Source: a virus (Duplodnaviria; Caudoviricetes). From it: a stretch of 64,000 nt of DNA. Location of the stretch: the IMG/VR virus record IMGVR_UViG_2623620512_000004, positions 1 to 64,000 of that record; one strand, 5' to 3'. Every line of letters starts with the position of its first letter. Positions within the stretch are counted from its first letter, which is position 1. The notes under the pieces were generated by a model. The model did no database searches and was not told the origin of the DNA. It worked only from the letters and a program-made list of their open reading frames with translations. Shown here one piece after another: positions 32,165 to 63,307 of this stretch. Both the position numbers and the translations under genes were made by a program.

Positions 32165-32503
32165 TTAAAAATCAATCTTCTCAAATCCGTAGTCATCTAC
32201 GTAGTAGGCTGTTCCGTCCAGAACCACTACGTCTGATACTGAAAGACTGTGGCCAGTGTAACCTTCTGGCTTCTCTCCTTGGAACTTCATGTACAGGTAT
32301 TCGAGAGTGACGATGGCTTCCTCATTCTCACCTACCTCTGTCTGTCCCTCATAGACTTTCTCATACAGGTCGCTGTCGAGTTTGCAGAGGTCACCGCTCA
32401 TGGTGCAAAGGTCATTCTCCTTTACGAAGTCCAAACTTGAAAACATGATGTAACGTCCATTGGGGGCGTCATCCTTAATCTGATAAATGCTGTACGATTT
32501 CAT
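32165..32503 (-). CDS. YodL-domain protein
   Basis: YSIYQI...YEKVYEG...GHSLSVSDVVVL...YYVD..GF. Confidence 0.8.
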   Translation of the reverse strand: MKSYSIYQIKDDAPNGRYIMFSSLDFVKENDLCTMSGDLCKLDSDLYEKVYEGQTEVGENEEAIVTLEYLYMKFQGEKPEGYTGHSLSVSDVVVLDGTAYYVDDYGFEKIDF

Positions 32504-32544
32504 TGCTCTTATACTTTTATATTATTATATGCGGTTTGCACTGG

Positions 32545-37435: not shown

Positions 37436-37471
37436 ACTTAACTTCGTTTAATTTAACAATATCATTGCTCT

Positions 37472-38923: not shown

Positions 38924-38949
38924 CTTTGTGACTTTTGTAATTACGGTCG

Positions 38950-38983
38950 CAAAGTTAGTTAAAATCATTTGAAAAACAAATAC
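38950..38983 (-). promoter_or_regulatory. Class B promoter/operator
   Basis: GTATTTGTTTTTCAAAT-N9-TAACTTTG upstream of portal. Confidence 0.7.
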
Positions 38984-39370
38984 TTTTCACACTTTTTTTG
39001 AAAAAGCCGTTTAAATTCGCTGTGAGACGTTTGTTTTTCTGGGGTGGGTAGTTATAAGGATGAAGGGGTAAAAACTCGCTGTGGACTTCGGAATCCTTTT
39101 TATTTCCTGCGTTTTCTGTAAGGTAATAAGAGTGCGCTTTGGATATTCGAGGTTTTCGCCCTCCTGCTTTGCAGTTTCGCTCTGCCACACTGTGTCGCTT
39201 GTGGATGCGGATAGTCTCTGGCTAACCATCAATGCCTGCGCTTTCAAGTGCCTTTTGTTTATGGAGAGAGCCACTTCAAAGGCTACCGAAAATACGGATA
39301 ACTCTCCTTGCTGATTTCTCAGCCGAACGTTCGTTGTGGATGGCCAGAACGTTGAATCTGGCCGTACCGC

Positions 39371-39700
39371 CTATACGGATTCACCCTTCTTCAAATTCTT
39401 TGGGCTTTCTAACTGGTCGCAGATGGCAACCCTCTTACCTACACGTATCAGTTTAGGCAGGTAAACGTCTAACGCATGATGAGGAAACGCTGTCTCTTTC
39501 CTGCCATTGTGCATGGAGAGCGTTATTCCGAGAATCTTTTCACAGGCCTCTGCATCCTGCTCATACGCCTCATAGTAGTCACCGCAACGGAACAGTAAAA
39601 CTGCGTCTGGATATTTCTCCTTGAACTCATAGAACTGCTTCAATGCAGGTGTCAGTTCTATCTTGATGTTCGACTTGCTGATATTGATTTTCTCTGCCAT
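39371..39700 (-). CDS. Stand-alone MutS domain I (mismatch-binding domain) protein
   Basis: [26 protein letters not shown]...[26 protein letters not shown]. Confidence 0.85.
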
Positions 39701-39703
39701 AAC

Positions 39704-39850
39704 TTAACCTACCAGATGTTCTTCAACCTTCACTCCTTTGTAATCAAATCTCCTGTACTCTTTCGCTTCCCTGTTTGCGTCTGCTCTGTTAGCATAGACA
39801 CCGAGTACTCCTGCATTGTACGATAGTACATAAACGTGTTCACCTTTCAT
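39704..39850 (-). CDS. Hypothetical protein
   Basis: MKGEHVY... small ORF in cassette. Confidence 0.45.
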   Translation of the reverse strand: MKGEHVYVLSYNAGVLGVYANRADANREAKEYRRFDYKGVKVEEHLVG

Positions 39851-39852
39851 AA

Positions 39853-40005
39853 TCAATAACCCTTTACTTCCATTCTGAACTTTTTGAATAGCGGCCAAGC
39901 GATTTCGTTAGCCTCCTTCTCTCCAACCTCGCAGTAGTGCGTTCTGTCAGTCAGATTGTCTAAGACATCTAACAGGAACTCCTTTTCTTTCTTCGTCAGT
40001 TTCAT
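39853..40005 (-). CDS. Hypothetical protein (50 aa, not in ORF track)
   Basis: MKLTKKEKEFLLDVLDNL... fills the gap exactly. Confidence 0.5.
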   Translation of the reverse strand: MKLTKKEKEFLLDVLDNLTDRTHYCEVGEKEANEIAWPLFKKFRMEVKGY

Positions 40006-40009
40006 ACCT

Positions 40010-40294
40010 CTACTTGTTTACGACTAACGGCTGACCTACCCAGAACAGCAGGTACTCGCCTAACTTGTGATTGTTTCTGACACTATCAAGCACCTTCTCT
40101 GACAAGGAGGCACGTTCTGTTACCTCCTTGCCGAAGAGTGGGCTGTGAGAGACAGCCTTTGCAATACGCTTACTGTTGGCCATTGCATAGGCTATCTCCT
40201 TGGCACCACCGATGGTCATTCCGATTTCGTTGTCTGATGCGTCAAACAGCTTAACGACCACCCTTGCACTGAACAATCTACCTTCGTTTGCCAT
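40010..40294 (-). CDS. Hypothetical protein
   Basis: Coupled ORF. Confidence 0.55.
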   Translation of the reverse strand: MANEGRLFSARVVVKLFDASDNEIGMTIGGAKEIAYAMANSKRIAKAVSHSPLFGKEVTERASLSEKVLDSVRNNHKLGEYLLFWVGQPLVVNK

Positions 40295-40647
40295 TACTCT
40301 TCCTCCGAATACAGGTTATTCAAGAAGTTCTTCAAGTAGGTGTCATCTATCTCCGAGAGTTTCACAGGGTCAAAGTGAATGTCTCTCTCCACTCCAAGAC
40401 CCCATGAGTTCTTGACAGTCTGGAGTTCTGCAAGGCTGACGTAGCCGTACTCACCTTCACCTGCAGGATTGATGGTGATACCGTAGCCTATCTTGTTTTC
40501 AAGATCCGCCTCCAGAATGTACCACGTCCAGTTGACACCGCACATGAAGAACTTCACAACACAGATTGCATCCTTCTTCTTACCATCTTGGCTGTAGAGG
40601 GGATATTCCTGCAACCGTTTCTCTACTTCTTTCGTAATCAATTTCAT
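40294..40647 (-). CDS. DUF2958-like protein
   Basis: LYSQDG...VKFF...WTWYILE...EYGYVSLAEL...VERDIHF. Confidence 0.75.
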   Translation of the reverse strand: MKLITKEVEKRLQEYPLYSQDGKKKDAICVVKFFMCGVNWTWYILEADLENKIGYGITINPAGEGEYGYVSLAELQTVKNSWGLGVERDIHFDPVKLSEIDDTYLKNFLNNLYSEEE

Positions 40648-40665
40648 TGCTCTTCTGTTTTAGGG

Positions 40666-40869
40666 TTACTTCTTCAATTCATATCTGCTCTTAGGATTCA
40701 ATCTCTGGAGGCGAGCCAGAACATCTTCTTGTGTGTTCTCGCCATACAGAGCCTCGTACCATACTGGATGAGCGTATAACTCACCATTCTTCTTCACCGA
40801 GTAGATGTAAGCACCACGCTTCACATACTCCTTACCATTCTTTCTGTGTTTGATTTCGACTAATTTCAT
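40666..40869 (-). CDS. Hypothetical protein
   Basis: AGAGCA-ATG start. Confidence 0.6.
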   Translation of the reverse strand: MKLVEIKHRKNGKEYVKRGAYIYSVKKNGELYAHPVWYEALYGENTQEDVLARLQRLNPKSRYELKK

Positions 40870-40888
40870 TGCTCTTATACTTTAGGGG

Positions 40889-41272
40889 TTAATTCATTCT
40901 GTTTACAACTTCCTCGACAAAATCTAACTGAGCATCGAAGTTCTTCCAGACTTTGCGATTAACATCTATCAGTTCTCTGTGACCATGCTCCAACTGAAGC
41001 ATCATGTCATCAAACCAGTCACCTGTGTACTTGTAGCCATCATCCAGAACTATGACTTCCTTCTTCTTGGGCTGATGGAGGCGCAATGTTCTCATCATCC
41101 AGTTAGCCATCTCGATATTCTGCTTCGTACCTGTAAAGATGGCGAAGATGGTAGTTCTGATACCATTGGTCGTGATGTCATCACCTTCCTCCCAATCGAA
41201 GTGGTGCTCACGAATACCAATCAGATTCTTACTCTCATTGTAATAAACTAAAAATTTCTTTGACGTTTCCAT
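40889..41272 (-). CDS. Hypothetical protein
   Basis: AGAGCA-ATG start; first gene after class A promoter. Confidence 0.6.
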   Translation of the reverse strand: METSKKFLVYYNESKNLIGIREHHFDWEEGDDITTNGIRTTIFAIFTGTKQNIEMANWMMRTLRLHQPKKKEVIVLDDGYKYTGDWFDDMMLQLEHGHRELIDVNRKVWKNFDAQLDFVEEVVNRMN

Positions 41273-41302
41273 TGCTCTTTACGTTTAATTGATTTGCACT
41301 GG

Positions 41303-41337
41303 CAAAGTTAGCCAAATAATTCTGAATATCAAAACGA
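41303..41337 (-). promoter_or_regulatory. Class A promoter/operator
   Basis: TCGTTTTGATATTCAGAA-N9-TAACTTTG. Confidence 0.75.
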
Positions 41338-41374
41338 ATGTTCCAGAGATTTTCGCTACATAAACTAAGATTAA

Positions 41375-41614
41375 CTATAGGACTTTCATGTACTTCTGCT
41401 TGATAACAGTTATTGACTTTTGCACCTCCAGAGTGGTATCAATGCCTAACATCTGGTAGAAACGTCCGCTTCCGTTCAATGTCTCACTGGCTATCTGGAG
41501 CGTCCTGCGCTCTTCCTTCGAGAATCCAATCTTGAAGGTTTTGAAGATGGCAAGCGCATCCCGCAGCCTGCCATCCTTGAACAATCCTATAGCCTTATCG
41601 GTTTTCGTCATCAT
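41375..41614 (-). CDS. Hypothetical protein
   Basis: MMTKTDKA... ORF. Confidence 0.55.
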   Translation of the reverse strand: MMTKTDKAIGLFKDGRLRDALAIFKTFKIGFSKEERRTLQIASETLNGSGRFYQMLGIDTTLEVQKSITVIKQKYMKVL

Positions 41615-41786
41615 CCTTGACCTCTCCTTGAACATATATTTCGTGTCCGTCAAAATCTCCGTCATCTAAGACTATCTCTGATTCCTCCCACTGTGCTTGC
41701 ACCTTGTTCCAAGCATCATCCTTGTCCTCTGCCTCCACCTCGACAATGCGAGAGAGGGTTTCTATTATCTTAACTTTGTACTTCAT
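41595..41786 (-). CDS. DpnD/PcfM-like protein
   Basis: YKVKIIETLSRIVEVEAE...A...V...W...EIVLD..DF. Confidence 0.7.
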   Translation of the reverse strand: MKYKVKIIETLSRIVEVEAEDKDDAWNKVQAQWEESEIVLDDGDFDGHEIYVQGEVKDDDENR

Positions 41787-41787
41787 A

Positions 41788-42789
41788 TCATGCCATCTTT
41801 ACGAGTTCAACCTTTTCCTTACTTACCACTTCGAGAATCATCTGCACGGCCTTGTTGACATCTGCCAGGACAGAGACGATAAACTTTGGCTCCTTGTGGA
41901 GCGCACTTATCCATGAATCCAGATAACAGGCATTGTTATCCATCAGCTTCGGGTCGAAGCCTAACACCTGACCGATGATGGCCGCTGACAGTTCGGCAAC
42001 CAGTTCTTCCTTCGCATACTCCTTGGAGGCGAAAGCGTTTCCCTTACCTCTGGCCAGTCGGCTTTCATGGCCAGTGGAGTGAGCCATTTCGTGTAGCAGG
42101 ACATCATAGAATCGCATTCCGCTGAGATACTTAGCCTCATCACTGGAACTGTCATAGAACTGTGTTTTCATGGGAACGTGTATCTCATCCTTTGACGGAC
42201 GGTAGAACGCTTCGTTGGACGGCTTCTGGTAGTGGATAGGGCAAAGCCACTTCTGACCAGAGAGCATATCATCTATATCTGCATTCTCATACATTCCGAA
42301 CGTGTCCGTTGGCGGTTCTGCGACTTGGAACTTCTTTTTCAGTTTCTCGATAACCTTGGGTGCTGCCTCTTCAAGGTTGGTCTGGCTGATGTTAAACACG
42401 TTGTACGACTTCAACACAGGGTAGTACGTACACTGCTTTCTCTCTTCCATTGACATGTCATCAATGTTCTCTACCTTGGTACCATCGGCCTTCTTATAGA
42501 TAAGCCTCCAGTACAGTACTGGGAATGATTCTGCACCCTTGTTGATATTGCCTCCGAGTTCCTTAATCTGGTGGAACGTGGCGAACACTGGGTACTTCCA
42601 GTCATTCATGCTTGACAGCAGGAGCAGAAGGAACGAGTTCGTGCCGTTGTACTCACTGCCTCTGAGGTTGATAGGCATATCACCGAAGGTCGTACCTATC
42701 CAACCTTTCTTCCAGTCAGATGCTTTCATCTGCTTCATTCGCTCGATAATCATATCTGCGAACTTCTCTACTACTAATTCCGATTTCAT
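41788..42789 (-). CDS. ardC: ArdC-like antirestriction ssDNA-binding protein with zincin-like domain
   Basis: WKKGW, Y.GTN, ATFHQI..LGG.I.KG, YNVFN..QT, AFYRPS.D.I..P, HEMAHSTGH, YAKEELVAE. Confidence 0.85.
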   Translation of the reverse strand: MKSELVVEKFADMIIERMKQMKASDWKKGWIGTTFGDMPINLRGSEYNGTNSFLLLLLSSMNDWKYPVFATFHQIKELGGNINKGAESFPVLYWRLIYKKADGTKVENIDDMSMEERKQCTYYPVLKSYNVFNISQTNLEEAAPKVIEKLKKKFQVAEPPTDTFGMYENADIDDMLSGQKWLCPIHYQKPSNEAFYRPSKDEIHVPMKTQFYDSSSDEAKYLSGMRFYDVLLHEMAHSTGHESRLARGKGNAFASKEYAKEELVAELSAAIIGQVLGFDPKLMDNNACYLDSWISALHKEPKFIVSVLADVNKAVQMILEVVSKEKVELVKMA

Positions 42790-42801
42790 TGCTCTATACT
42801 T

Positions 42802-43044
42802 TTATGGTTTGTAAAAATCTGCATCTACTACGTTGGTCGGCAAGCCAAATTCTGGCACTGGCGAGAAGTACGGCTCATGCTCTGGTTCGTTAGTATGCCA
42901 ATCAACTACATATCCATTGGGAAACTCTCTGATGAGGAAATTCTTAATCTCCTGCTCATCCTCATCAGAGATACCGCTATAGTCACCATACTCGATGGCA
43001 CAGATAGCGTATTCTGGTATCTTATACGTTCCTATCAGTTCCAT
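42802..43044 (-). CDS. Hypothetical protein
   Basis: 80-aa acidic ORF. Confidence 0.55.
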   Translation of the reverse strand: MELIGTYKIPEYAICAIEYGDYSGISDEDEQEIKNFLIREFPNGYVVDWHTNEPEHEPYFSPVPEFGLPTNVVDADFYKP

Positions 43045-43055
43045 AGACTTTCCTC

Positions 43056-43289
43056 CTACGATAAGACATACACCATTGTCACGCCTCGCTTCTGAGCCTC
43101 TTTCTTAGCTTCCTTGACTGCATCCGAGTACATGGTGTATGGCTTGGACCAGAACACCTTGTCTGGGTCATTCTCTGCCTCCTGTCTGTTGCCGATGGCG
43201 AAAGCCCATGTGCCTTTGCCTTTGGGAGCGTGACCATGCGCCCAACGATAACCTGCAGTACTCACTTCAATCTGATTCATTGCTACCAT
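43056..43289 (-). CDS. Hypothetical protein
   Basis: 77-aa ORF, HG..PKG.G.WAF motif. Confidence 0.55.
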   Translation of the reverse strand: MVAMNQIEVSTAGYRWAHGHAPKGKGTWAFAIGNRQEAENDPDKVFWSKPYTMYSDAVKEAKKEAQKRGVTMVYVLS

Positions 43290-43302
43290 AATCGTTTCCT
43301 CC

Positions 43303-43518
43303 TTACTTTACGCTAAAAACTAACATTCTGTAGTCATCACCACATCTGAACTGCTTCTTGCCGTTGGTAAGAACGCAGAACTGTTTCTGACTGGCTCTTC
43401 TGTGAAGGTATGCCAGATACTCCATTGCAGCCTCGATCGTGCTGAAGGTCTTTAACACGCACTTTTCGGTTCTGATGCCGAGGTGCTGAATCTCTTTCAT
43501 TACTTTGTACGATTTCAT
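43303..43518 (-). CDS. Hypothetical protein
   Basis: AGAGCA-ATG start after class A promoter. Confidence 0.6.
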   Translation of the reverse strand: MKSYKVMKEIQHLGIRTEKCVLKTFSTIEAAMEYLAYLHRRASQKQFCVLTNGKKQFRCGDDYRMLVFSVK

Positions 43519-43557
43519 TGCTCTTATACTTTATATTGTTAATGCTGTTTGCTCTGG

Positions 43558-43592
43558 CAAAGTTACACATAAAATTCTGAATATCAAAACGA
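43558..43592 (-). promoter_or_regulatory. Class A promoter/operator
   Basis: TCGTTTTGATATTCAGAA-N9-TAACTTTG. Confidence 0.75.
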
Positions 43593-43599
43593 TGCAACT

Positions 43600-43860
43600 T
43601 TTTATTTTCTATACATTGACTAAGTTTAACTGTTGACTTTTTGCACAGAAAACACGTTTTGAGCAAAATCCTCATGGTGGCCATAATTTCATGCGGATGG
43701 ATAAGTATAAAGGGGGTTCAATTTGAAACTGGCAGGGAACTTTAGAATCAGTATTTAACATTGGGTTAACTTAACTGGACTTTATCAATGTCAAAGGAAT
43801 CTAAATTTAACGGTTGCTTAACGGAGATTTGCCCTGTGGTGGCCGTCAGTGGCCATTAAC
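43600..43860. repeat. Dispersed intergenic repeat copy
   Basis: 35-bp block 43613-43647 identical to 57276-57310; 19-bp core at 43699-43717. Confidence 0.75.
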
Positions 43861-43871
43861 GGTTTATAACA

Positions 43872-43942
43872 GAAAAAAGTGCTCCTATTCGTCACGAACC
43901 GAAGCACTAAGAGCAATGAAATCGTCAAAAGAAACGATTTCG
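43872..43942 (-). ncRNA. Candidate trans-acting antisense sRNA complementary to AGAGCAAUG start regions
   Basis: TAACTTTG -7 box at 43946-43953; 5' hairpin GAAATCGT/ACGATTTC; linker ATTGCTCTT; terminator AGTGCTTC...GGAGCACT plus T run. Confidence 0.7.
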
Positions 43943-43991
43943 CTGCAAAGTTACAAAACTTTTTCTAATTACAATTATTACAGCAATATAT

Positions 43992-44519
43992 TTAGCAACT
44001 TTTATGTCTCCACTTGTAGCCTCCTGCAGTTTTGTATCGTCCATTACAGCAGGCAGCAATGTTACCATGATGCACTCCTGTCTTTCTTTCTGCATCGTTC
44101 GCAGATTCAAACTCATCAATGTATTCTCCTGTCAACGTGTAACGCACAACAGGCTTTGAATAAGCATTTGGGCGTGTACCGTAATTCATATTGTAATCTC
44201 TTGTGCACCATTCAAGATTGTCAACATGGTTATTTGTCTTGTTCTCATCTTTATGGTTCACTTCGTTTTCGTTTCCACACTTTACCAAGAATGCTTCGGC
44301 TACAAGACGATGAACAAGACAGAACTTTGCTTTTCCAGATTTTGCCAGATAAACATATTCATAGCCTATTTTGTCTATTCGCTTTTTCAAAAGACACCCT
44401 TTCTTTAATACTTCTGAATAACGGTTCTTTCTATATCTCGGCAAAGAACGTACATTGCCAAAATTACTCACTTGGTATTCATTTTCATACCCTTCTATAT
44501 CTTTCCAAATCTCAATCAT
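43992..44519 (-). CDS. NUMOD4-HNH-NUMOD1 homing endonuclease
   Basis: EIWKDIEGYE..YQVSNFGNVRS, VHRLVAEAF, VNHKDENKTNN...NLEWCT. Confidence 0.9.
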   Translation of the reverse strand: MIEIWKDIEGYENEYQVSNFGNVRSLPRYRKNRYSEVLKKGCLLKKRIDKIGYEYVYLAKSGKAKFCLVHRLVAEAFLVKCGNENEVNHKDENKTNNHVDNLEWCTRDYNMNYGTRPNAYSKPVVRYTLTGEYIDEFESANDAERKTGVHHGNIAACCNGRYKTAGGYKWRHKSC

Positions 44520-46030
44520 AACATTTCATTTAAAAGTTTTTCGTCATTACTGTAATCCCAATCGTAAGGATAGAATGTCATCGCCAGAGCATCGAAACGG
44601 TCTGGTGAGCGTTTGAGACGTTTCTTGATTTCTTCCTTCTTTTCTATGATGATGCTGCCGTTACTGAGGAACGACCAGTGTATGTCACAGGCCTCTTCTA
44701 CCAAGAAGTCATCTGGAGGCAGGGCAGGGTTGAAGCCGTTCTTGGGGTCAAGCCACTCCCTAACAGCCCAGAACAGGTAGGCTCGCATATTGGCAAACGA
44801 ATACTGCCCTGTGAGGTCATGCAGGCCCTTTGTGCCTTCCGAGTTCTTGCATGAGTATGCGTTGTAGTAGTCCTGCTCCTGTAGCCTTGAATAGACACCT
44901 GCGCCCTCACCGATGGTATCAATGAAAGCCTTGGCCTTCTCATCCTTCAGATATTGGAGGGTCTTTCCTGCTATCTTCATGTGGTCAGCAGAGCCGCCAG
45001 ACTGGTGAACCTCTATCTTCGGCACCCATGAGCCATAACGAGGGATGAGCACAGAACAGTCACGACCCATACCTGCAACGTCCACACCAACCCTTGCGTG
45101 TTTCTTGGTGGTGTAGCCATCATCGTTGAGTTCCTTCCAACGGTTGACTGCGAGTTCCAACCATTCGTAAGGGATAAGGATGTCCTCAGACACTTTCGGG
45201 AACATTCCGAGCACCTTGACACGGAACAGATCGTTAGGACGGTAGTAGTTACCTTCCCAATAGAAGTCACCCATTCCTTCGTTGACCTCATCCTTGCGGA
45301 TGGGTGTGCACCAGTTCTCGACCTTATCCTTGACCCATTCATAGTCAACCTGTCCGGGAATGACATTCTTTTTCTTCTTGACGTTCTCTGCGTTGAGGCT
45401 GTTTAGTCTGAACTTCTTGAAACGTGCAGACTTCATGGCCTTGGCGGCATAGCCAGTGGTGACGTTCGGGTTGAACACCAACAACAAACGAGAGTTACCC
45501 TGCAAGTTACCTTCGATGGCGTTGTAGGTAGCCTCTGGAATACCAGATGCCTCAGTGACTATGAACATGGTGTTGACTGCATGGAAACCAGACCAAGCCT
45601 CGGTATTGTCTGCCGATGACTTAAAGCCTGTCAGATACCATTCCTCATAGTTGGTACGGATGCCGTTTGACAACAGACGGCCAGGAAGGAACTGCGCATT
45701 ACGGTAAAGACGTGACACCTCTGGAATCATAATATCCTTGACCTGTCGGCCTGTAGGTGCAGTCATGGCAATCTTCGTATTCTTGACCAGTTTACCTTCC
45801 TTGTTGAATCGTGGAGTAAGATACATGAAACAGATGGCAGCGACAGCAGCGATATAGTCTTTACCTCTGGCAGTACCAGAGGCAACAGCAACCATCCTTT
45901 CGTTCTGGACGGCTCTGAGAATCGCTTTCTGTTCGTTGTCAAGTCGGGCATGGAGCACTTCTTTGGCAAAGAGGCACCAGTCAGCCCGCCATGCTTTCAT
46001 CTTGTTCTTTCTCTTACTGTCACTATTCAT
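44516..46030 (-). CDS. terL: Terminase large subunit
   Basis: Walker A-like SGTARGKD, TAPTGRQV, VTEASG, nuclease GVDVAGMGRD and SPDRFDAL. Confidence 0.88.
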   Translation of the reverse strand: MNSDSKRKNKMKAWRADWCLFAKEVLHARLDNEQKAILRAVQNERMVAVASGTARGKDYIAAVAAICFMYLTPRFNKEGKLVKNTKIAMTAPTGRQVKDIMIPEVSRLYRNAQFLPGRLLSNGIRTNYEEWYLTGFKSSADNTEAWSGFHAVNTMFIVTEASGIPEATYNAIEGNLQGNSRLLLVFNPNVTTGYAAKAMKSARFKKFRLNSLNAENVKKKKNVIPGQVDYEWVKDKVENWCTPIRKDEVNEGMGDFYWEGNYYRPNDLFRVKVLGMFPKVSEDILIPYEWLELAVNRWKELNDDGYTTKKHARVGVDVAGMGRDCSVLIPRYGSWVPKIEVHQSGGSADHMKIAGKTLQYLKDEKAKAFIDTIGEGAGVYSRLQEQDYYNAYSCKNSEGTKGLHDLTGQYSFANMRAYLFWAVREWLDPKNGFNPALPPDDFLVEEACDIHWSFLSNGSIIIEKKEEIKKRLKRSPDRFDALAMTFYPYDWDYSNDEKLLNEML

Positions 46031-46419
46031 TAGTCATCGTCATCCTCATCATCTTCCGCATCGACTTCCTGCATCAACTTCTCGAAAGAGTTGGTGACAT
46101 TGGTATCTATCTGCTCTACATAGCCACGCTTCCTACCCTTGGTCTTTAGATAGAAAATGATGGCTGTGATGTTGTCATCATTGATGGCCTCCAACAGCTT
46201 ACCTTCAACCCTGTCAAGGGTAGCCTCCGTGATGTCATCAACCTTTTCGGCAAAATCTGGATCGTCTTTCTTCCATTCATAGAAGGTCTTTCTTGTGATT
46301 CCTGCAGCCTCGCAGGCATACGCAACGATGCCCTTGCTTTCAACAAGGGCTTTCAGAACTTTACTCTTCTTACGTTCCGTTTTCGCTGCAAGTTTGGCTA
46401 ACGTATCTTCCTTACTCAT
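46030..46419 (-). CDS. terS: Terminase small subunit (HTH)
   Basis: ACEAAGITRKTFYEWKK.DPDF, AIIFYLKTKG..RGY; directly upstream of terL. Confidence 0.8.
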   Translation of the reverse strand: MSKEDTLAKLAAKTERKKSKVLKALVESKGIVAYACEAAGITRKTFYEWKKDDPDFAEKVDDITEATLDRVEGKLLEAINDDNITAIIFYLKTKGRKRGYVEQIDTNVTNSFEKLMQEVDAEDDEDDDD

Positions 46420-47417
46420 TCACCAAATAGATTTAGTTGTACGGTTCCTGTTTCGAGTTCCTTCATCCGCTCCTTGTCTGGATGCGGTGTGTAGTCCTCT
46501 CTGTAGAATCCGTTATCGCACAACCAGAAGAAATGCTCCCAACTGGCATCATCGTACTCCCCTTGAATGTGGGGCGTGAGTGCTGCCTGTTCGTCACGTA
46601 TAAACTCCTGCTTTGTGCGCTTGCGAATTTTCCCTAAGTAGGTATGACAGTCATATACATACTCTGGTATCTGATACTGAACATTGTCGAGCAGTCTGAG
46701 GTCTATCTTATCATTGTAGATGAAGTGAGGCAAGAAGAATCGCGTGTGACCCCATTTGCGGACTTTTAGCAACGTTGTTATCGCCTTGGAGTAGTAGAGT
46801 ATAGTTGACTGCTTCGTTATTTCGTCTGCGGCCTTTAAATTACGTATTTCCTTGACCACTGGCTCAAAGCCCATTTCCTGCGCTTTCATGATGAGCGTTT
46901 TCCAAGCGAACTTCCTGTAGTACACCAACAACTCATTGCAGGCGTACCCTGCATAGACATCATCACCTGCGTCTATCGCATTGCGTAGGCAGATGGCGAG
47001 GTCAAACATACAGTGTCCGTTCTTGGTTGCACAGGACTTGTCATCGACTGGCTCTGGGCAATACTTACTGATGTCTAACGTATCTCTGGAGTTCAAGAGG
47101 TTGCAGGCGAAGTAGTCTGCATCCCTGTTCTTTCTCGCATTCAGCAACGTAGAGACAGCAACAGCGATATTCTTGTCATCCTGCCTTACTGCATCCTGCT
47201 CATGGAGTTCAACTATCCTTCCAGTAATCATATCGAAACAGTCCTCTGCCGATACGGTGAGCAACCTCTTCCAGAGATAGTTCCTGTACTTCGGTATCAA
47301 CTCGTTAGCGGCATAGTAGGCGAGATTTGCATCCCTCCTTCTCAACGCTTTCTGAATGAGTGAAGATACCTCAAACATATTATGTCCGTGTCTTGTGTAA
47401 CCACCTTTTTGTGCCAT
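46416..47417 (-). CDS. Protein resembling RarA/MgsA C-terminal helical domain (duplicated, no ATPase)
   Basis: SSLIQKALRR.D...LWKRLLTVSAED; second copy TKNGH.MFD; IPEYVYDCHT..GK. Confidence 0.55.
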   Translation of the reverse strand: MAQKGGYTRHGHNMFEVSSLIQKALRRRDANLAYYAANELIPKYRNYLWKRLLTVSAEDCFDMITGRIVELHEQDAVRQDDKNIAVAVSTLLNARKNRDADYFACNLLNSRDTLDISKYCPEPVDDKSCATKNGHCMFDLAICLRNAIDAGDDVYAGYACNELLVYYRKFAWKTLIMKAQEMGFEPVVKEIRNLKAADEITKQSTILYYSKAITTLLKVRKWGHTRFFLPHFIYNDKIDLRLLDNVQYQIPEYVYDCHTYLGKIRKRTKQEFIRDEQAALTPHIQGEYDDASWEHFFWLCDNGFYREDYTPHPDKERMKELETGTVQLNLFGE

Positions 47418-47502
47418 ATTCCTTGTATATTGGTTTATAGTGCAAAGGTAACTATTATTTATGAGAATAACGAACGTTTATCAGAGTTTAACGCTTTGAC
47501 TA

Positions 47503-48237
47503 TCAGCGTTTTATGTTTATCTTCGCTTGGTTCTTGCGAACGTCATACGAGTAGTACTTACCCCATTTGTTTTCCATAGCCAGACGGCCTTGATAGGTCT
47601 CTTCTCTGGTGTTGGTCTCTCCACCGCTGTTGACCTCCATCTGACCTGCATCAGACAGGAAATACTTTGGCTGTAGAGTGATGCGGTTGAGCAACATTTC
47701 CTGCATGGCCATATCAATATCCGATGAGGCCATATCCTTGCAGTCGTACTTGGCTTTGAGGCAATTCTTGTTGACCCATCGACAATGACCGGGCATTCCT
47801 TTGAAGTTCCACTCCTTGTCATAGGCGAAGAGCGTTTTCTGGGGGCCGTCATACGCAAGACCGAGATCCAAATCAACTAACATCTGGGCTATTCGCTCCA
47901 CCTCCGCTGTGACGGTCTCTACAGGATTGATGAAGTTTGCGCTGTCTATCGGCAACCAGTTATTCATCCTGTAGATGAAGCGAGTGATGTCATCATCCGC
48001 AATGAATATAACATCTTCTGGGGTGTTCCAGATAGTCCACCATAGCGTATCCATGAAGTTCCAGACAGGACAATCCTTGGGAATGATGAGCAGGTTATCC
48101 ACTCCTGCCTCCCTGTACTTGTCTGCCTCTTCCTCTCTGACCACATACGTACAGTACTCGAACAAGTCCTTGGTAACGATGCGGTCATACCTCTGGTAGG
48201 ACATGACGTAGATGTTAAAGGAAATACCTGCTGTCAT
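47503..48237 (-). CDS. GT-A fold glycosyltransferase (GREB1/TET-associated-like)
   Basis: IYVMSYQR, VVREEE...Y, IADDDI (DxD), C-terminal N.GG motif. Confidence 0.65.
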   Translation of the reverse strand: MTAGISFNIYVMSYQRYDRIVTKDLFEYCTYVVREEEADKYREAGVDNLLIIPKDCPVWNFMDTLWWTIWNTPEDVIFIADDDITRFIYRMNNWLPIDSANFINPVETVTAEVERIAQMLVDLDLGLAYDGPQKTLFAYDKEWNFKGMPGHCRWVNKNCLKAKYDCKDMASSDIDMAMQEMLLNRITLQPKYFLSDAGQMEVNSGGETNTREETYQGRLAMENKWGKYYSYDVRKNQAKINIKR

Positions 48238-49249
48238 AGAACTTCTTCATCTTAAGTCCAAACTCGATTTTCTGGAACTGGCCAATATCAGAATAGTCAC
48301 CCAACAGGTTCTTGCAGCGAAGGTAGAGCATATTCACTCCTGCCTTCCAGACGAACGGCAGCGAGGCGTTCACTCTGGGGTTCACCTCCAACAGTACAAC
48401 CCATCCTTCTGGAGTGATGCGGAAGTCGAAACAGGCGTTTCCGTCAAGGTCGAGTTCCTTAACCAGTTTCTCCACTATCTCGTAGGCTTGCTGATTGTAG
48501 GCTATCTCTCCGTCAATGATGGCACCATAGGACATCTGATGACCGATGTAGCCAACGATATGAGTAACCTTTCCCTTGACTGCCAGGACGCTTACTGAAT
48601 AGTCCTTACCATCAACGTACTCCTGCAGGATAACAGTTGTCTTTCTCTGACAAAGGACTTCACAGAGGTCATCCATGCTGATATATCGGTTCTCTCCTAA
48701 CTTGTTGAAGAGCGTGATGTCTCTGGCCTTCTCATCATCAACGATGGCGAAGCCGTTACCTCCTGCATGGTCTGACAGCTTACAGCACATCTTATTACCA
48801 ATGCGGATGGTTCGCAGGAAATCTACTGCGTCCGCATAACAGGTAGGTATCATCTGCTTCGGCATGAGCGAGGAATAATGCTTCTGGAGTTCAATCTTAT
48901 TATTCGCAACGGCAATACACTCTGGAGAGGCTACAGACACCATGATTCCTTGGTTCTCGAAGAAAGGCTTGTATTTAGCCATCAGTTCAAGTTCTACGGT
49001 GGCCGTAGGGATAATGATGTCAATCTTCCACAATTCGCAGTAGTGCCGCAACAATTCCAGATACTTGCTGTCTGTAATCGGAGGAACTACAGCGCACCCT
49101 TCAACCATACCGACTGGCGGCAGGTTGTGAGGGTTGCAGTTGACGGCATACACATTGACGTTTACACCATCCTCATTCTGTTTGAGGCTATCTATACGCT
49201 CCTTGACGTGGTTAGCACAACAAGTCAGCAGAACATTGAAATCTCTCAT
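48215..49249 (-). CDS. ATP-grasp ligase
   Basis: DIIIPT...EL, NNK, GGNGF, LQEYVDGKDYSV, LLEVNPR. Confidence 0.85.
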   Translation of the reverse strand: MRDFNVLLTCCANHVKERIDSLKQNEDGVNVNVYAVNCNPHNLPPVGMVEGCAVVPPITDSKYLELLRHYCELWKIDIIIPTATVELELMAKYKPFFENQGIMVSVASPECIAVANNKIELQKHYSSLMPKQMIPTCYADAVDFLRTIRIGNKMCCKLSDHAGGNGFAIVDDEKARDITLFNKLGENRYISMDDLCEVLCQRKTTVILQEYVDGKDYSVSVLAVKGKVTHIVGYIGHQMSYGAIIDGEIAYNQQAYEIVEKLVKELDLDGNACFDFRITPEGWVVLLEVNPRVNASLPFVWKAGVNMLYLRCKNLLGDYSDIGQFQKIEFGLKMKKFYDSRYFL

Positions 49250-49250
49250 A

Positions 49251-49865
49251 TCACTTCTTCTTTTTGGGTACTATCTTGGCTTTCATGTCATCATACCAGA
49301 TGGCACGTGCCTTAATCTTTCTATCCTTATCTCTGGTATGCGCTATCAGCACCTTCTTATCTTCAATGCCGAGAGCACGAATGAGGTTGTTATAGTCCAC
49401 CTCATTACGGCAGACAATCATCACATAGTCATACTTCTCATAGCGTATCAACTCCATGTCCTTAATCTTTGGCTCCTTGGTGGTCAATACGGTCAAATCA
49501 GTAGAGAGGTCAATATGGAGGCTTCCAGTCCATTCAGCCAGTTTCTTCATGTCCCATTCTCCTGCATGGGTGTTGGCTTTGATGTTAACGGCTTTCTTCT
49601 CTCCATCAGAGTAGCCTATCAGACGTTTGCAGAGCACTGTCCTGTTGGGGTCTATGGCATACAGTATCTTCACTCTCTGGTTACCAGACAGAATACTGTT
49701 CTTCTCATCAATGACGATGACGCCAAAATCACCCAACTTTTCCAAGGATTCCTCCAAGGCCTGCTTACGCTTTGGAGTGAGAGGCTTACGAGGGTTCTCA
49801 AACTCGAAGTTCAAATCCTTCACTTTGAGTTCTACTACTTCAATTCGTTTTTCTTGCTGTTCCAT
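49251..49865 (-). CDS. ParB-like N-terminal domain protein
   Basis: ENPRK...LEESLEKLG...IVIDE...ILSGNQR...N...GEWD. Confidence 0.8.
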   Translation of the reverse strand: MEQQEKRIEVVELKVKDLNFEFENPRKPLTPKRKQALEESLEKLGDFGVIVIDEKNSILSGNQRVKILYAIDPNRTVLCKRLIGYSDGEKKAVNIKANTHAGEWDMKKLAEWTGSLHIDLSTDLTVLTTKEPKIKDMELIRYEKYDYVMIVCRNEVDYNNLIRALGIEDKKVLIAHTRDKDRKIKARAIWYDDMKAKIVPKKKK

Positions 49866-51417: not shown

Positions 51418-51435
51418 AGTTCTGTAACTTTGCTG

Positions 51436-51469
51436 CAAAGATAGGCATTTTTATTTGAATAACAAATAC
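51436..51469 (-). promoter_or_regulatory. Class B promoter/operator
   Basis: GTATTTGTTATTCAAAT-N9-TATCTTTG upstream of glf cluster. Confidence 0.7.
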
Positions 51470-51490
51470 TTTTCACACTTTTTGAGTTAT

Positions 51491-51715
51491 TCAGAGGTCA
51501 AACAGCCATCCTTCGACTGCTTTTGGCTTGGGTGGATGGGTGCAAGAGACTCAACCATCATGCTCATTACACCATTCGTAACGGATGAAGTAAGGACACT
51601 TATTCTGTCCGCTTCCAGAGTAACATTCATCATGTTCCAAGTCTCTTTCTCCAAAAGGACACACCATCACTTTCGGATGGCTTTTGTGATGTATTGTCGG
51701 CACATACGTAATCAT
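51491..51715 (-). pseudogene. Small Cys-rich ORF with one in-frame TGA
   Basis: MITYVPT...NEHDG*VSCTHPPKPKAVEGWLFDL; TGA at 51551-51553. Confidence 0.35.
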
Positions 51716-55635: not shown

Positions 55636-56240
55636 TTCTCTGCCTCCTTACGGTTGAATGGTCCTACATAGTCAGCCCAGATGGAAATGAACTGCTTGCC
55701 GAAGTAAACGGCCAGTTCCTCTGACTTGACAGCAAGGCGAGCCGAGACGCTCGAGTACGAGAACGACCAAGCGTCGTTCGAGTTCGCACAAGCGAGACCG
55801 CCATTCGCACCGTAGTACGAGCTACCGCCACCGAGCCACAGCGCACGGTCTTTCTTCCATTGCTCTGACTTGCCTTTCAGTTCCTCTTCCGTCCAGAGAG
55901 TAAACCAAGGGTACCAACGGTATTCATCAGTAGTAAACTGAGGCTCCCATCCTTCGTTGAGGGCGGCAGCGATAGTCTTTAACTTGATGTAGGCTACCTC
56001 ATCTTTTTCCAAGAAGCATCGACTACCATCAATGGGTGACGAATAACGTAACTTGTAGAAATCTACAGGCTCGAAGCCGAGTACATGACAGGCATCCTCA
56101 TAGGTCTTTACTCTCTCTGTGATGGGTAGCAAGGTGTCAATACCTTTAACCTTAACATCATACTTCTCTGCGAGTGCAATCATTTCTTTTGCGAACTCCT
56201 GTGCCTTTTCCTGTGGCACATCTAACTTTAACTCTTTCAT
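55632..56240 (-). CDS. DGR target 2 (remote, non-tail protein with VR)
   Basis: 202 aa from AGAGCA-ATG start; VR2 encodes LWLGGGSSYYGANGGLACANSNDAWSFSYSSVSARL. Confidence 0.85.
   Translation of the reverse strand: MKELKLDVPQEKAQEFAKEMIALAEKYDVKVKGIDTLLPITERVKTYEDACHVLGFEPVDFYKLRYSSPIDGSRCFLEKDEVAYIKLKTIAAALNEGWEPQFTTDEYRWYPWFTLWTEEELKGKSEQWKKDRALWLGGGSSYYGANGGLACANSNDAWSFSYSSVSARLAVKSEELAVYFGKQFISIWADYVGPFNRKEAEK
55735..55842 (-). repeat. DGR variable repeat VR2
   Basis: Ungapped 108-bp match to TR; 13 mismatches by manual count, 11 at TR adenines. Confidence 0.92.
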
Positions 56241-56292
56241 TGCTCTATATTGGTTTAAACGTGCAGGGCGGTTACTCCTGCGAATCCTATAA

Positions 56293-59507: not shown

Positions 59508-60334
59508 TTCTTTTCTTGCTTTACGTACTCTTCTGGTGTGCAGCCCATCTTTTCCTTGAACAGGTCTTTGAGCATTTTCAAGTCATCTGGCTTATAGCGT
59601 TGGGTGTTATTGATGAGGGAATACGCCATAGACTTCATGTGGTCCTCTTGGTAACGTTTGTAGCCCTTGGGCTTGGTAGTTGCAGGGGTGGCAACATTTG
59701 AGCCGCTTAGAGGACTTGATTTTACTGGCAGTCCGTTCAGTCTGCAATACTCTTCATAGGTGACGGCCGTTTTCGCATATTCAGCATCAGCCTTTTCCTT
59801 TAACTTTCTGTCGTGCTCTTCATATTCATTGGCACGTTCCCTCAGAAACGTCCTCAACGATGTCGTGATAACGATGGGGTCAACAGAGCCATAGAACCTG
59901 CCATACCTTCCAGACTTGAAGCGGTGCAGGAAAAGCATTATCTCCGTGACCTTCAGAAAGCCAAACTCGGTGCTTATCACACTGGCGCATTGCTGTAGTG
60001 CATGGCCAGATAACTTATCCCTGCAGCCGCAGTATTCTGACAGATCGTGCAGATGAGCCATGAGCCACGCAACAGGGAACTTGCCGTCAAAGTCAGTCTT
60101 TAACTGAATAAGGGTGGGGTACTCTCCGAACATACAGGCATCATCATCCAACTGCTTCTTGAACAGGTAGTCTGCATGATAGGTGTCAAGGACTTCCACG
60201 CCCTTGCTACCATATTTCTGCATCACTCCGTTTCTTAACTGAGACAGTTCAATCGTCAGAGAGGAAAGCGGAGATTGTTCTGGCCGCATCAGCTGTTCGC
60301 TGTTCCGTTGTATTATTTCCGTTACTGATTCCAT
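59504..60334 (-). CDS. Replication-associated protein (putative helicase loader)
   Basis: Follows initiator; EIMLFL.RFKSG.YGRFYG motif; AGAGCA-ATG start. Confidence 0.55.
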   Translation of the reverse strand: MESVTEIIQRNSEQLMRPEQSPLSSLTIELSQLRNGVMQKYGSKGVEVLDTYHADYLFKKQLDDDACMFGEYPTLIQLKTDFDGKFPVAWLMAHLHDLSEYCGCRDKLSGHALQQCASVISTEFGFLKVTEIMLFLHRFKSGRYGRFYGSVDPIVITTSLRTFLRERANEYEEHDRKLKEKADAEYAKTAVTYEEYCRLNGLPVKSSPLSGSNVATPATTKPKGYKRYQEDHMKSMAYSLINNTQRYKPDDLKMLKDLFKEKMGCTPEEYVKQEKK

Positions 60335-61013
60335 TGCTCTTAGTGCTATATGATTTTTCGTTTCTGCTCCAATACCGTATCCTCTTTTCAAGAACCCACG
60401 TCTTTTCCATTTCCCAACGCATCCTGCTACCAGACTTATTCGTCTGGCTCCACCAATCATAGAAATTACGCACCATTTCCTTTCCATATATCTGTACGTA
60501 AGGAATGAGGGAGTTATAGAACGCTGCCATACGCTTCTTGGTGTCAGCTGCCACATCTTCCTTGGTTTTCTTTGGGCGTGTTATATTTGTTTTGTTTGAT
60601 TCTTCGCCAGAAGAATCTATAATATTACCTTCTTTAGATGTGGACGTTTGTTGGTCGTTAGTTGGACTTTGGTTGGACGTTTGCTGGACGCTTTCTGGAT
60701 TTACATCTTGATAACTTTCATAATTACAGATAGTTATAAGCGAAAATCGGTTGGACGCTTGGACTATAATTTCACCTGTTTCCTGTAGTTTCTGGATGCA
60801 GGTGCGGATAACTCTTTCCGATATACCTGTCTCTGCCATAAGCCTGTTCCTTCCAGTGATAAGTTGGCCTCGCTTGATTTCCACGCCCTGCCACCGTCCA
60901 TCCTTTACATTGGCATTGAGAAGCAAATGCAGAAACAGATGAACCATTTCAGATTTGCCGTACCATTCCCAATCTTGGAACCTGCGGTATATCTTTACCC
61001 AACTTTCAGACAT
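60249..61013 (-). CDS. Phage replication initiator protein
   Basis: WVKIYR...WEWY, HLLLNAN, RGQLITGR..L, ITICNYESYQ, FYDWW...MRWE. Confidence 0.75.
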   Translation of the reverse strand: MSESWVKIYRRFQDWEWYGKSEMVHLFLHLLLNANVKDGRWQGVEIKRGQLITGRNRLMAETGISERVIRTCIQKLQETGEIIVQASNRFSLITICNYESYQDVNPESVQQTSNQSPTNDQQTSTSKEGNIIDSSGEESNKTNITRPKKTKEDVAADTKKRMAAFYNSLIPYVQIYGKEMVRNFYDWWSQTNKSGSRMRWEMEKTWVLEKRIRYWSRNEKSYSTKSNGISNGNNTTEQRTADAARTISAFLSDD

Positions 61014-62075: not shown

Positions 62076-63250
62076 TGGAACATTACATTTGTGAGTTGTT
62101 TTCCGTGTGACATAATGCACCATCTACTGGAGTTAGGTGCTTCCAGATCTATTTTCAAGTCGGCCACATTGCCGAAGCGTCTGTAGGTTCCGCACAAGTC
62201 CACTACCCAACCGTCCTTGCCTTTGAACGGACGGATGGCACGGCCTACCATCTGATAGTAGAGAGCGAGGGATTTTGTCGGACGGCCAAGGATAATCGTA
62301 TCTAACTCTGGGTAGTCGAATCCAGTAGTCAGCGTACCTACGTTGGCCACGACCTTGATACTTCCTGCCTTGAACTCTTCAAGGATTTCCTCTCGGTCTC
62401 TCTTAGGGGTCTCTCCTGTGACGATACCTGCATTGATACCTACAGACTGTAACTTGTTGACAAGGCTCTCTGCTTCCTCGATGTATCTGGTGAATACCAG
62501 GACACCGTTTCTGGGTATGCCACTCTTTGGCTTCAATACTCGGATGGTAGTCTGGGACAGCTTATCATAAAAGCCGCTTCTCTTATACTCTTCCTTCAGC
62601 GACTTGTCATCATAATCTGCACCTGTGGAGTTGGAACGTACCCTGCTCATGTCAACAGCCGTACAGTCATAGTAGTGGAGGTTTGCGAGATAGCCCTTGG
62701 CCAGAAGGTCTGAAATCTGACAGTAGTACAGGACGGATGAGAATATTCTTGGGTTCGTCCTTGTGAGGAACTTCAAGGTGCTGCCACCTCTGAATGAGCA
62801 CAGTCTGTACGGTGTGGCCGTAAGACCTACCACCCTTCGCTCTGTAGCCTCGATGAACTGCTTATACTGTCCTGCCTTGGAGTTGACGTAATGGCACTCA
62901 TCAATCATGACGTTCTTGAAGTGCTCGAAGTCCTCCATGTGATTCATGACGCTTCCGATGGTGGCGAAGGTGATGCGGTTTATATCCTTCCTGCCTACCG
63001 ATGCCGAATAGACTGAGGCATCCCAACAGCCGTAACTCTGCAACTTGGCGAAGTTCTGTTCCAGAATCTCCTTCTGGGGCTGTAGAATCAGAAGCGGACC
63101 ATCTAACTTAGAGGCTATGTCGGCAATAACGAGGCTCTTACCTGCTCCTGTCGGCAGGATAAGCAAGCCGTTACGTGCTCCCTTGGACTGGAAGCATCTT
63201 ACAGCTGCCGTGCTTGCATCCCTCTGATAGTCTCTTAAAACGTATTTCAT
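62072..63250 (-). CDS. SF2 DEAD/DEAH-box helicase
   Basis: LRDYQ, LPTGAGKS, IDECH, GLTATP, TGFD.P, QMVGRAIR. Confidence 0.92.
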   Translation of the reverse strand: MKYVLRDYQRDASTAAVRCFQSKGARNGLLILPTGAGKSLVIADIASKLDGPLLILQPQKEILEQNFAKLQSYGCWDASVYSASVGRKDINRITFATIGSVMNHMEDFEHFKNVMIDECHYVNSKAGQYKQFIEATERRVVGLTATPYRLCSFRGGSTLKFLTRTNPRIFSSVLYYCQISDLLAKGYLANLHYYDCTAVDMSRVRSNSTGADYDDKSLKEEYKRSGFYDKLSQTTIRVLKPKSGIPRNGVLVFTRYIEEAESLVNKLQSVGINAGIVTGETPKRDREEILEEFKAGSIKVVANVGTLTTGFDYPELDTIILGRPTKSLALYYQMVGRAIRPFKGKDGWVVDLCGTYRRFGNVADLKIDLEAPNSSRWCIMSHGKQLTNVMFQ

Positions 63251-63307
63251 TGCTCTTAGTGCTTAAAGGGTAGAGAGGTCGAAGCCTCCCTACCTGTTGT
63301 CATTGTC

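Follow-up and report, generated by a model that had tools for sequence, protein, structure and literature searches.

The c4 RNA of phages P1 and P7 and the sar RNA of P22 are antisense RNAs that act in the control of immunity by masking a ribosome-binding region and so preventing translation, and the CI RNA of satellite phage P4 is a small immunity RNA that pairs with repeated targets in phage transcripts. In T4 a single factor, RegA, acts on the start regions of many early mRNAs, whose translation is shut off jointly. To our knowledge, antisense RNAs that block translation starts act on one or a few targets each. Here we examine a 64,000-base stretch of a temperate Bacteroidales phage (hereafter the window; positions 1-64,000 of the 72,374-base provirus record IMGVR_UViG_2623620512_000004), in which the tag AGAGCAATG is built into the start codons of about 20 genes and a single reversed copy of it lies within a candidate small RNA (sRNA) gene downstream of the large terminase gene, terL. 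We put the probability at roughly 0.7 that the unit at 43873-43953 on the minus strand is the gene for a trans-acting antisense sRNA that blocks initiation on the tagged mRNAs.

The c4 and sar RNAs act at one or two sites of one operon (ant/icd), whereas the tagged set described here is genome-wide. A search of positions 43750-44050 against Rfam 15, which includes the C4 antisense RNA and the Bacteroides sRNA families, gave no match at E values up to 10. RegA is a protein and recognizes its sites by a loose motif, whereas here an RNA would read a fixed tag, and P4 CI RNA causes premature transcription termination at two sites rather than start-codon occlusion at about 20 genes.

From the host phylum, the passages on GibS in PMC7366714 describe a trans-encoded Bacteroides thetaiotaomicron sRNA that represses its target mRNAs and pairs with them over their start codons. 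As portrayed there, GibS resembles the predicted phage RNA in being a Bacteroidota sRNA with a conserved single-stranded seed across start codons, in a phylum without classical Shine-Dalgarno use. It differs in being chromosomal and in pairing imperfectly with two or three metabolic targets, whereas the phage RNA would address about 20 genes through one identical tag. The two RNAs show no sequence relation.

The nearest counterpart of the tag is SAS of the Cluster K mycobacteriophages, which is presented in the relevant part of PMC3203893 as a short asymmetric repeat that abuts the starts of 13-19 non-structural genes, is absent from the host and has one orientation save for a single reversed copy away from gene starts. 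In that part of the report the authors left open whether SAS is read by an RNA or a protein, and a 2024 report, in the portion that deals with SAS, still gives its role as unknown (PMC11373665). The tag described here shares with SAS that it is an asymmetric, phage-specific repeat at the starts of non-structural genes with one reversed copy. As given in these passages, SAS has the consensus GGGATAGGAGCCC with a Shine-Dalgarno core and lies 3-7 bp before the ATG, whereas AGAGCA is fused to the ATG in the present phage, and no partner RNA is described in them for SAS. The tag is thus an analogue of SAS and not a member of it. In Mycobacterium phage Anaya we found 16 forward copies of SAS and one reversed copy (L205:47871-47883; 59870-59882 of the record), which sits between gp96 and gp97 in a gap of 385 nucleotides (nt), where it falls in the 10-nt loop of a hairpin predicted on the gene strand. 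The reversed copy in Anaya may be part of an anti-SAS RNA analogous to the predicted phage sRNA.

The original prediction for this locus, made from the letters of the window, held that no equivalent had been described. This stood for the motif and the RNA, of which searches of the literature by topic and by sequence string returned no description, the strings matching unrelated oligonucleotides only. It did not stand for the principle, as phage antisense RNAs that block starts and SAS tags both exist. As predicted from sequence, the RNA defines a new family of sRNAs and extends antisense control by a new variant, the tag-addressed regulon.

The start tag and the predicted antisense RNA

The tag was found 23 times in the window against an expectation of 1.22, a number that none of 100 shuffled sequences reached, the highest count among them being 4. 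Twenty-two copies are on the minus strand, the gene strand, which carries essentially all of the long open reading frames (ORFs); the remaining copy, at 43910-43918, is on the plus strand. The whole record holds 23 gene-strand copies and one reversed copy, its plus strand has no further GAGCAATG, and the tag read backwards as a control was found on neither strand (0 and 0). Nineteen of the 22 gene-strand copies in the window begin ORFs of 48-392 amino acids (aa). Those with a recognizable family encode a helicase, a DUF6633 protein of the replication region, an ArdC-N/zincin protein, a YodL-like protein and a DUF2958 protein. Ten further tagged ORFs were searched (two others were left out); nine gave no match, and the remaining one hit a PHROG whose function is unknown. 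Given the families recognized, and because terL and the large structural-type ORFs are untagged, the tagged set is non-structural, comprising replication genes and accessory, anti-defence-like cassettes.

A set of 264 distinct tagged starts gave the consensus UAAAAnn(U/A)A-AGAGCA-AUG-AAa, whose A-rich part agrees with the adenine preferences reported for Bacteroidetes start regions in the pertinent section of PMC7366714. The tag is phage-specific: in the 2.8-Mb genome of Prevotella vespertina, 11 of the 48 copies of AGAGCAATG fall within one 38-kb prophage stretch, with 10 on the gene strand and one reversed, and the 13-mer TAAGAGCAATGAA occurs three times, only in that stretch. We considered the tag as a translation signal complementary to 16S rRNA and rejected this, as its longest complement in the P. 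vespertina 16S was 5 nt and 300 shuffles mostly gave 6.

Three further gene starts in the window carry the tag with one mismatch (40286-40294, 54374-54382 and 55627-55635), as AGAGTAATG in two cases and AGAGAAATG in one; AGAGTAATG could still pair with the seed of the predicted RNA through a U.G wobble. Untagged cassette genes at 30828, 40294, 43044 and 55635 have GGAGGA or GGAGGC 6-7 nt before their ATG. As such a Shine-Dalgarno-like signal is unusual for a Bacteroidetes-type host, the accessory cassettes appear to mix two start contexts.

The reversed copy is embedded in a compact unit with transcription signals of its own at the sequence level, a promoter and an intrinsic terminator. On the minus strand, TAACTTTG at 43953-43946 is followed by GCGAAATCGTTTCTTTTGACGATTTC-ATTGCTCTT-AGTGCTTCGGTTCGTGACGAATAGGAGCAC and then by six T at 43878-43873. 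The first of these matches TAnnTTTG, the sigma-ABfr -7 consensus as it appears in the promoter passages of PMC7366714. The 71-nt RNA was predicted to fold into a hairpin, a free AUUGCUCUU and a terminator at -25.8 kcal/mol, while its shuffled versions averaged -12.7 +/- 2.4 kcal/mol (z = -5.52), none of 200 being equally stable. The 3' arm of the 5' hairpin (hairpin 1) lengthens the pairing with those tags that continue as AUGAAAUCG. A sigma-70-type promoter scan, the coverage of which does not extend to Bacteroidetes promoters, flagged only hairpin 1, as terminator-like, and was not used. Reading the reversed copy as a plus-strand gene start was also rejected: the ATG at 43916 opens 201 codons, but the product is Cys/Leu/Ser/His/Gln-rich junk that matches nothing in Pfam, and over the same stretch the opposite strand carries the four-domain HNH gene.

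At all 22 gene-strand tags the predicted RNA can form contiguous Watson-Crick pairs over the AUG, with lengths of 9-21 nt. Predicted duplex energies averaged -23.3 kcal/mol at tagged starts and -10.5 kcal/mol at 77 other starts, a comparison that is partly circular; a genome-wide duplex scan at -14 kcal/mol was too permissive to be of use. The -7 box, the RNA sequence and the coordinates in the original prediction were exact as quoted, and its single opposite-orientation copy, its arrangement of 5' hairpin, exposed linker and terminator, and its claim of complementarity to the start codons of about 20 phage genes agree with the counts and the fold given above. Its pairing lengths, counted by hand, were likewise exact (21 nt at 63250, 18 at 32503 and 43518, 16 at 57190 and 60334, 15 at 42789 and 40869, and 9-14 at the other 15 sites).

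Conservation of the RNA and joint change of seed and tag

Relatives were collected with the terL protein, which retrieved 80 viral contigs (terL identity 70-98%) and 37 prophage loci in bacterial genomes (terL identity 56-81%). In most of the 80 viral relatives, CATTGCTCT is found 50-90 nt past the terL stop codon with no intervening HNH gene. A covariance model, trained on 11 of 27 distinct hand-picked elements after removal of near-duplicates, matched the window at 73 bits (E = 1.4e-13) and, in the viral set, recovered the unit at E <= 0.01 from 68 of the 80 loci; L013, at E = 0.012, brings the total to 69. We refer to this form of the RNA as type 1. The 70 model matches, window included, comprise 32 distinct sequences, which were aligned under the guidance of the model. 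In this alignment 95.4% of the cells at pair positions were paired, compared with 67.1% after shuffling (a level of pairing that none of 500 shuffles reached) and 38-47% when the pairing was slid by 1-3 columns, figures that are biased towards the model's own structure by the model-guided alignment. Changes on both sides were seen at 15 of the 18 stem pairs, 5 of 8 in the 5' hairpin and 10 of 10 in the terminator. A plain MAFFT alignment of the 27 distinct elements folded with RNAalifold had given five pairs only, owing to the variable length of hairpin 1, and was superseded by the model.

Between these variable stems, ATTGCTCTT is identical in all 32 distinct type-1 sequences, and the seed AUUGCUCUU is thus constant. 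The sole change next to it is in L078, where the preceding C is replaced by U, which retains a G.U pair with the G of AUG. A TAnnTTTG box lies a few nucleotides ahead of the 5' hairpin in 36 distinct promoter/RNA versions, the exact box being absent in three model matches. The GUGA at the tip of the terminator (43891-43894 in the window) is invariant in 27 of 27 type-1 RNAs despite the variable stem below it, and may be a site of contact with a protein or of a tertiary contact.

The same seed occurs on a second scaffold. In 40 of the 80 viral loci we identified, 5-9 kb further on, a promoter-to-terminator unit of about 115 nt (type 2), consisting of a 5' hairpin, a long-range stem that encloses a seed identical to that of type 1, and a terminator; it is unrelated to type 1 and gave only sub-threshold noise against Rfam. 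Its consensus fold was derived from 7 of the 10 distinct sequences, omitting L023, L039 and the insertion-bearing L047. Examples are L025:16890-17011 and L018:19825-19946, and the phage of the window has type 1 only. A UGUGAAG loop that heads the type-2 scaffold resembles the GUGA tip of type 1. The recurrence of an identical seed on scaffolds with no relation to each other suggests that the function of the predicted RNA resides in the seed.

With both types counted (69 loci with type 1 and 40 with type 2), a seed-bearing sRNA, of one type or both, is present in 78 of the 80 viral loci. L019 and L022, which have none, retain a degenerate remnant after terL (UAUUGCUUGG and a GUGA-tipped terminator) and have one tag each. 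The records G002-G005 carry 2-6 tags and no reversed 9-mer, but are not counterexamples: a type-2 sRNA with the shorter, 8-nt seed CATTGCTC is present in all of them (L050, L061, L062, L077 and L088). One 52-kb viral contig, G001, carries two terL relatives, L019 and L055, the one with the degenerate remnant and the other with an intact sRNA; this could reflect two tandem phages or a chimeric assembly.

Among the 37 prophage loci in bacterial genomes, 13, namely L106, L095 and 11 identified by the model, have both the sRNA and tags; their hosts include Bacteroidaceae, Prevotella, Paraprevotella, Parabacteroides and Gallipaludibacter. Cultured strains with a relative of the phage are Prevotella vespertina A2879 (L093), Prevotella sp. 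KH2C16 (L094) and Parabacteroides faecalis AGMB00274 (L118). The other 24 loci, whose hosts include Paludibacter, Marinifilaceae, Chitinophaga, Emticicia and Muribaculaceae, have no sRNA and six tags altogether, which is about the level of chance. As this pattern tracks phylogeny, the co-occurrence represents a single gain or loss and not many.

For a survey of seed classes, a seed was counted only if preceded by TAnnTTTG at a distance of at most 115 nt and followed by a T run after 25-85 nt, and a tag only if it opened at least 40 codons. In the prophage of Prevotella sp. RUG753 and two near-identical viral records (L106, L126 and L127) the seed is CAUUGCUUU, and the gene strand of the 97%-complete record of this lineage carries six copies of AAAGCAATG and none of AGAGCAATG. 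By comparison, the 153 loci with a CUCU seed have 662 AGAG tags and 75 AAAG tags. This is a single lineage, yet several separate tags had to change for the predicted match with the seed to be kept. L118 is a partial second case, with the seed CAUUGCUCAA and two of its six tags UUGAGCAAUG. The original prediction proposed to look in relatives for co-variation of seed and start motif, and for a motif kept without the antisense element. Seed and tag changed jointly in one lineage and partially in L118; the records with several tags and no reversed 9-mer carry a type-2 sRNA, and in distant prophages RNA and tags were lost together. Those parts of the sRNA reading that sequences can address, namely covarying stems, an invariant exposed seed and presence in 78 of 80 relatives, were borne out, and repression is what we infer from them.

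In the CUUU-seed lineage (L106:11540-11640) we also noted that the 5' part of the sRNA, UGUUUCUUAUUUACA, is complementary to a leader element of 13-15 nt, GTAAATAAGAAAC, located 20-37 nt upstream of three tagged starts (L106:432, 19895 and 20194), which would provide a second, non-contiguous pairing site. In the window, AGAAAC followed by G or A, the complement of the arm and loop of hairpin 1, lies within 80 nt of 6 of the 22 tags. Six of its 22 gene-strand occurrences fall within 5.5% of the sequence, at varying positions, a weak second-seed signal that appears to be a weaker echo of the second pairing site in L106.

Coordinates and surroundings of the locus

Positions of the predicted sRNA gene, the tag copies and the neighbouring genes are collected in Table 1.

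Table 1. Features of the predicted sRNA locus, gene-strand tag copies and neighbouring genes in the window.
Feature	Positions	Strand	Basis or pairing with the predicted RNA
-7 promoter box, Bacteroidetes type, TAACTTTG	43946..43953	-	sequence; TAnnTTTG box in relatives
Predicted sRNA, ~69 nt	43873..43941	-	5' end inferred from -7 box; 3' end within T run
5' hairpin, 9-bp stem, 6-nt loop UUCUUU	43918..43941	-	fold; covariation
Invariant block UUCAUUGCUCUU	43909..43920	-	invariant columns, 27/27 aligned sequences
Unpaired linker AUUGCUCUU, predicted anti-tag seed	43917-43909	-	inside invariant block
Intrinsic terminator: bulged hairpin, GUGA tip, six U	43873..43908	-	fold; all 10 modelled pairs compensated
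Start tag, ATG 63250, 392-aa helicase	63248..63256	-	21 nt
Start tag, ATG 60334, 276-aa DUF6633 protein	60332..60340	-	16 nt
Start tag, ATG 57190, 78 aa	57188..57196	-	16 nt
Start tag, ATG 56941, 95 aa	56939..56947	-	9 nt
Start tag, ATG 56240, 202 aa (phrog_11581)	56238..56246	-	12 nt
Tag copy internal to 202-aa ORF, opens 12 codons, no gene start	55858..55866	-	
Start tag, ATG 54025, 127 aa	54023..54031	-	13 nt
Start tag, ATG 53596, 84 aa	53594..53602	-	9 nt
Start tag, ATG 52883, 93 aa	52881..52889	-	11 nt
Start tag, ATG 52590, 48 aa	52588..52596	-	10 nt
Start tag, ATG 52390, 155 aa	52388..52396	-	13 nt
Tag copy 8 nt upstream of ATG 50338 (167-aa ORF); own ATG opens 10 codons	50344..50352	-	
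Start tag, ATG 43518, 71 aa, first tagged gene downstream of sRNA	43516..43524	-	18 nt
Start tag, ATG 42789, 333-aa ArdC-N + zincin peptidase	42787..42795	-	15 nt
Start tag, ATG 41272, 127 aa	41270..41278	-	10 nt
Start tag, ATG 40869, 67 aa	40867..40875	-	15 nt
Start tag, ATG 40647, 117-aa DUF2958	40645..40653	-	14 nt
Tag copy 30 nt upstream of ATG 37435 (392-aa ORF); own ATG opens 5 codons	37463..37471	-	
Start tag, ATG 32503, 112-aa YodL-like	32501..32509	-	18 nt
Start tag, ATG 32147, 101 aa	32145..32153	-	13 nt
Start tag, ATG 31568, 64 aa	31566..31574	-	10 nt
Start tag, ATG 31361, 178 aa	31359..31367	-	12 nt
terL, large terminase, anchor for relatives	44516..46030	-	tblastn matches annotated terminase large subunit
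HNH endonuclease gene, between terL and sRNA promoter; context only, outside the proposed mechanism	43992..44519	-	Pfam domains

The product of the HNH gene matched the Pfam entries NUMOD4 (4e-13), HNH_3 (2.1e-8), I-HmuI NUMOD-like (2e-7) and NUMOD1 (4.8e-6). This gene is missing from the junction in all 69 viral loci with an sRNA after terL, where the sRNA lies at most about 100 nt from terL. In the closest relative, L009 (98% terL identity), the unit comes directly after terL, which suggests that the HNH gene was inserted recently, without damage to the promoter-proximal sequence or the predicted sRNA promoter. No named phage was found to be related: a DNA search matched HNH fragments only, and terL was at most 31% identical across the phage collection. 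The sole match of the window to Rfam at the gathering score was a tRNA gene at 25100-25172 on the minus strand, between structural-type genes.

Alternative readings, proposed mechanism and significance

Several observations weigh against a trans-acting antisense sRNA that blocks initiation. Because seed and tag are almost invariant, their co-variation rests on one lineage, represented by three near-identical records, and on L118. Beyond the core of 12-14 nt the co-variation of the flanks is weak, and match scores within a clade barely differ from those between clades. About 10% of the tags in CUCU-seed loci are AAAGCAATG, which mismatches that seed, and five relatives (L050, L061, L062, L077 and L088) have only the shorter 8-nt seed CAUUGCUC. 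Three of the 22 tags in the window, at 55860, 50346 and 37465, open short frames (12, 10 and 5 codons, respectively) and so do not head a long ORF. The predicted accessibility of the seed is moderate, with a mean unpaired probability of 0.68 against 0.34 elsewhere in the RNA, and that of the window RNA falls to 0.50 once the 5' nucleotides are included. Four of ten sequencing runs were RNA libraries. Over positions 36000-52000 their contigs showed a roughly flat depth across the 16 kb in X1 and X2, and at the locus one contig covers 41601-44023 and another 43997-45320; as assembled contigs they are uninformative on a discrete RNA and unable to resolve its ends, strand or level.

The single reversed copy is by itself within chance, with about 0.6 expected per strand of the window, and taken alone it would suit a chance occurrence in an ordinary terminator of the terL operon. 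Its significance lies in its conservation and not in its count: 69 of 80 relatives have it at the corresponding position, as an invariant seed between variable stems, and we give next to no credence to coincidence. It is considerably easier to imagine that the unit acts in cis as a leader or attenuator, with a constitutive promoter, a terminator about 70 nt later, and downstream expression governed by antitermination or by pairing of the anti-tag, within a read-through transcript, to the tag of the gene that follows, though this too strikes us as improbable. A promoter with a nearby terminator is the anatomy of lambda-type modules such as PR'-tR' (6S RNA), in which downstream expression depends on an antiterminator, and a tagged gene follows the unit by 150-190 nt in L078, L089, L098, L104 and L118 and by 394 nt in the window. 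A leader would leave unexplained why the tag of about 20 dispersed genes is mirrored in it and why the same seed recurs on a second scaffold elsewhere in the genome; moreover, the next tagged gene in the window has its own -7 box, the next one in L106 is 8 kb away, and no antiterminator gene was identified, no dedicated search for one having been made.

A similarly small share of our belief goes to AGAGCAATG as duplex DNA bound by a phage protein, for instance a transcription factor or a recombinase that exchanges cassettes; the reversed copy would then be a flipped site. Such a protein would predict the same concerted change as an RNA does, and in the L106 lineage all copies did change jointly, the reversed one included; the tags also head accessory cassettes that look mobile. 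Against it, the tags keep to one strand and are tied to start codons, and the reversed copy is always in the anti orientation, as the unpaired part of a covarying promoter-terminator RNA on two scaffolds. The L078 variant breaks a DNA site and preserves the G.U pair of an RNA. Somewhat less unlikely, though still not what we expect, is that the RNA does pair with the tags and has another main outcome, either guided RNase III-type cleavage that would process or degrade polycistronic transcripts at each tagged junction, or action mainly on incoming related phages in preference to its own genes. In favour of this, several targets allow long duplexes of 14-21 uninterrupted nt, many tags lie at junctions 10-15 nt past an upstream stop codon, and tag and seed are identical throughout a wide phage family. 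These outcomes are variants of the explanation that we favour, and the current data do not separate them from translational repression.

The favoured explanation, antisense repression of initiation, would work as follows. A promoter with a host-type -7 box would start the RNA at the foot of the 5' hairpin, and the intrinsic terminator would end it. The invariant stretch (UUC)AUUGCUCUU(A) between the stems mirrors the tag (U)AAGAGCA-AUG-(AAA), such that the RNA could pair with positions -8 to +6 of tagged mRNAs and over as many as 21 nt where the flanks match. With the AUG covered, the 30S subunit would be excluded and translation of the whole tagged set lowered together; we infer this block from the action of start-codon-covering sRNAs elsewhere, including GibS in Bacteroides. 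Cleavage of the duplex may occur besides. One possibility, which fits with a host-type promoter of its own, is that the RNA is made constitutively during lysogeny and sets a threshold for, or a safeguard against, leaky early transcripts. It could also be made late in infection, which is possible since the unit also terminates the terL(-HNH) transcript. The original prediction named the same two options, maintenance of lysogeny and a late shut-off of early genes. One small RNA thus probably turns down the translation of about 20 tagged non-structural genes together.

A further and more speculative proposal, about which we are doubtful, is that the sRNA of a resident prophage serves as an RNA compatibility or immunity code that silences its own leaky tagged genes and those of superinfecting relatives. 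If so, the tagged early, replication and anti-defence genes of an invader would be silenced whatever accessory genes it carries, and lineages would escape by joint change of seed and tag, the CUUU/AAAG lineage being a new immunity type. The same logic might then explain the SAS of Cluster K, with its exactly one reversed copy, unexplained since 2011.

Collectively, the data suggest that this phage addresses about 20 scattered, unrelated genes by means of a fixed start-codon tag and one dedicated RNA, or two in its relatives. This would be an economical way to co-regulate mosaic accessory cassettes, as a gene that acquires the tag would join the regulon, and the natural orthogonal seed/tag pair CUUU/AAAG may be of use in experiments or as a tool. 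The arrangement also suggests, as a concrete hypothesis, how the still unexplained SAS repeats of mycobacteriophages might work. It is widespread among prophages of gut and rumen Bacteroidales (Bacteroidaceae, Prevotella, Paraprevotella, Parabacteroides and relatives), in which post-transcriptional control is poorly known, and would provide a testable handle on lysogeny and early-gene control in the phages of major gut bacteria.

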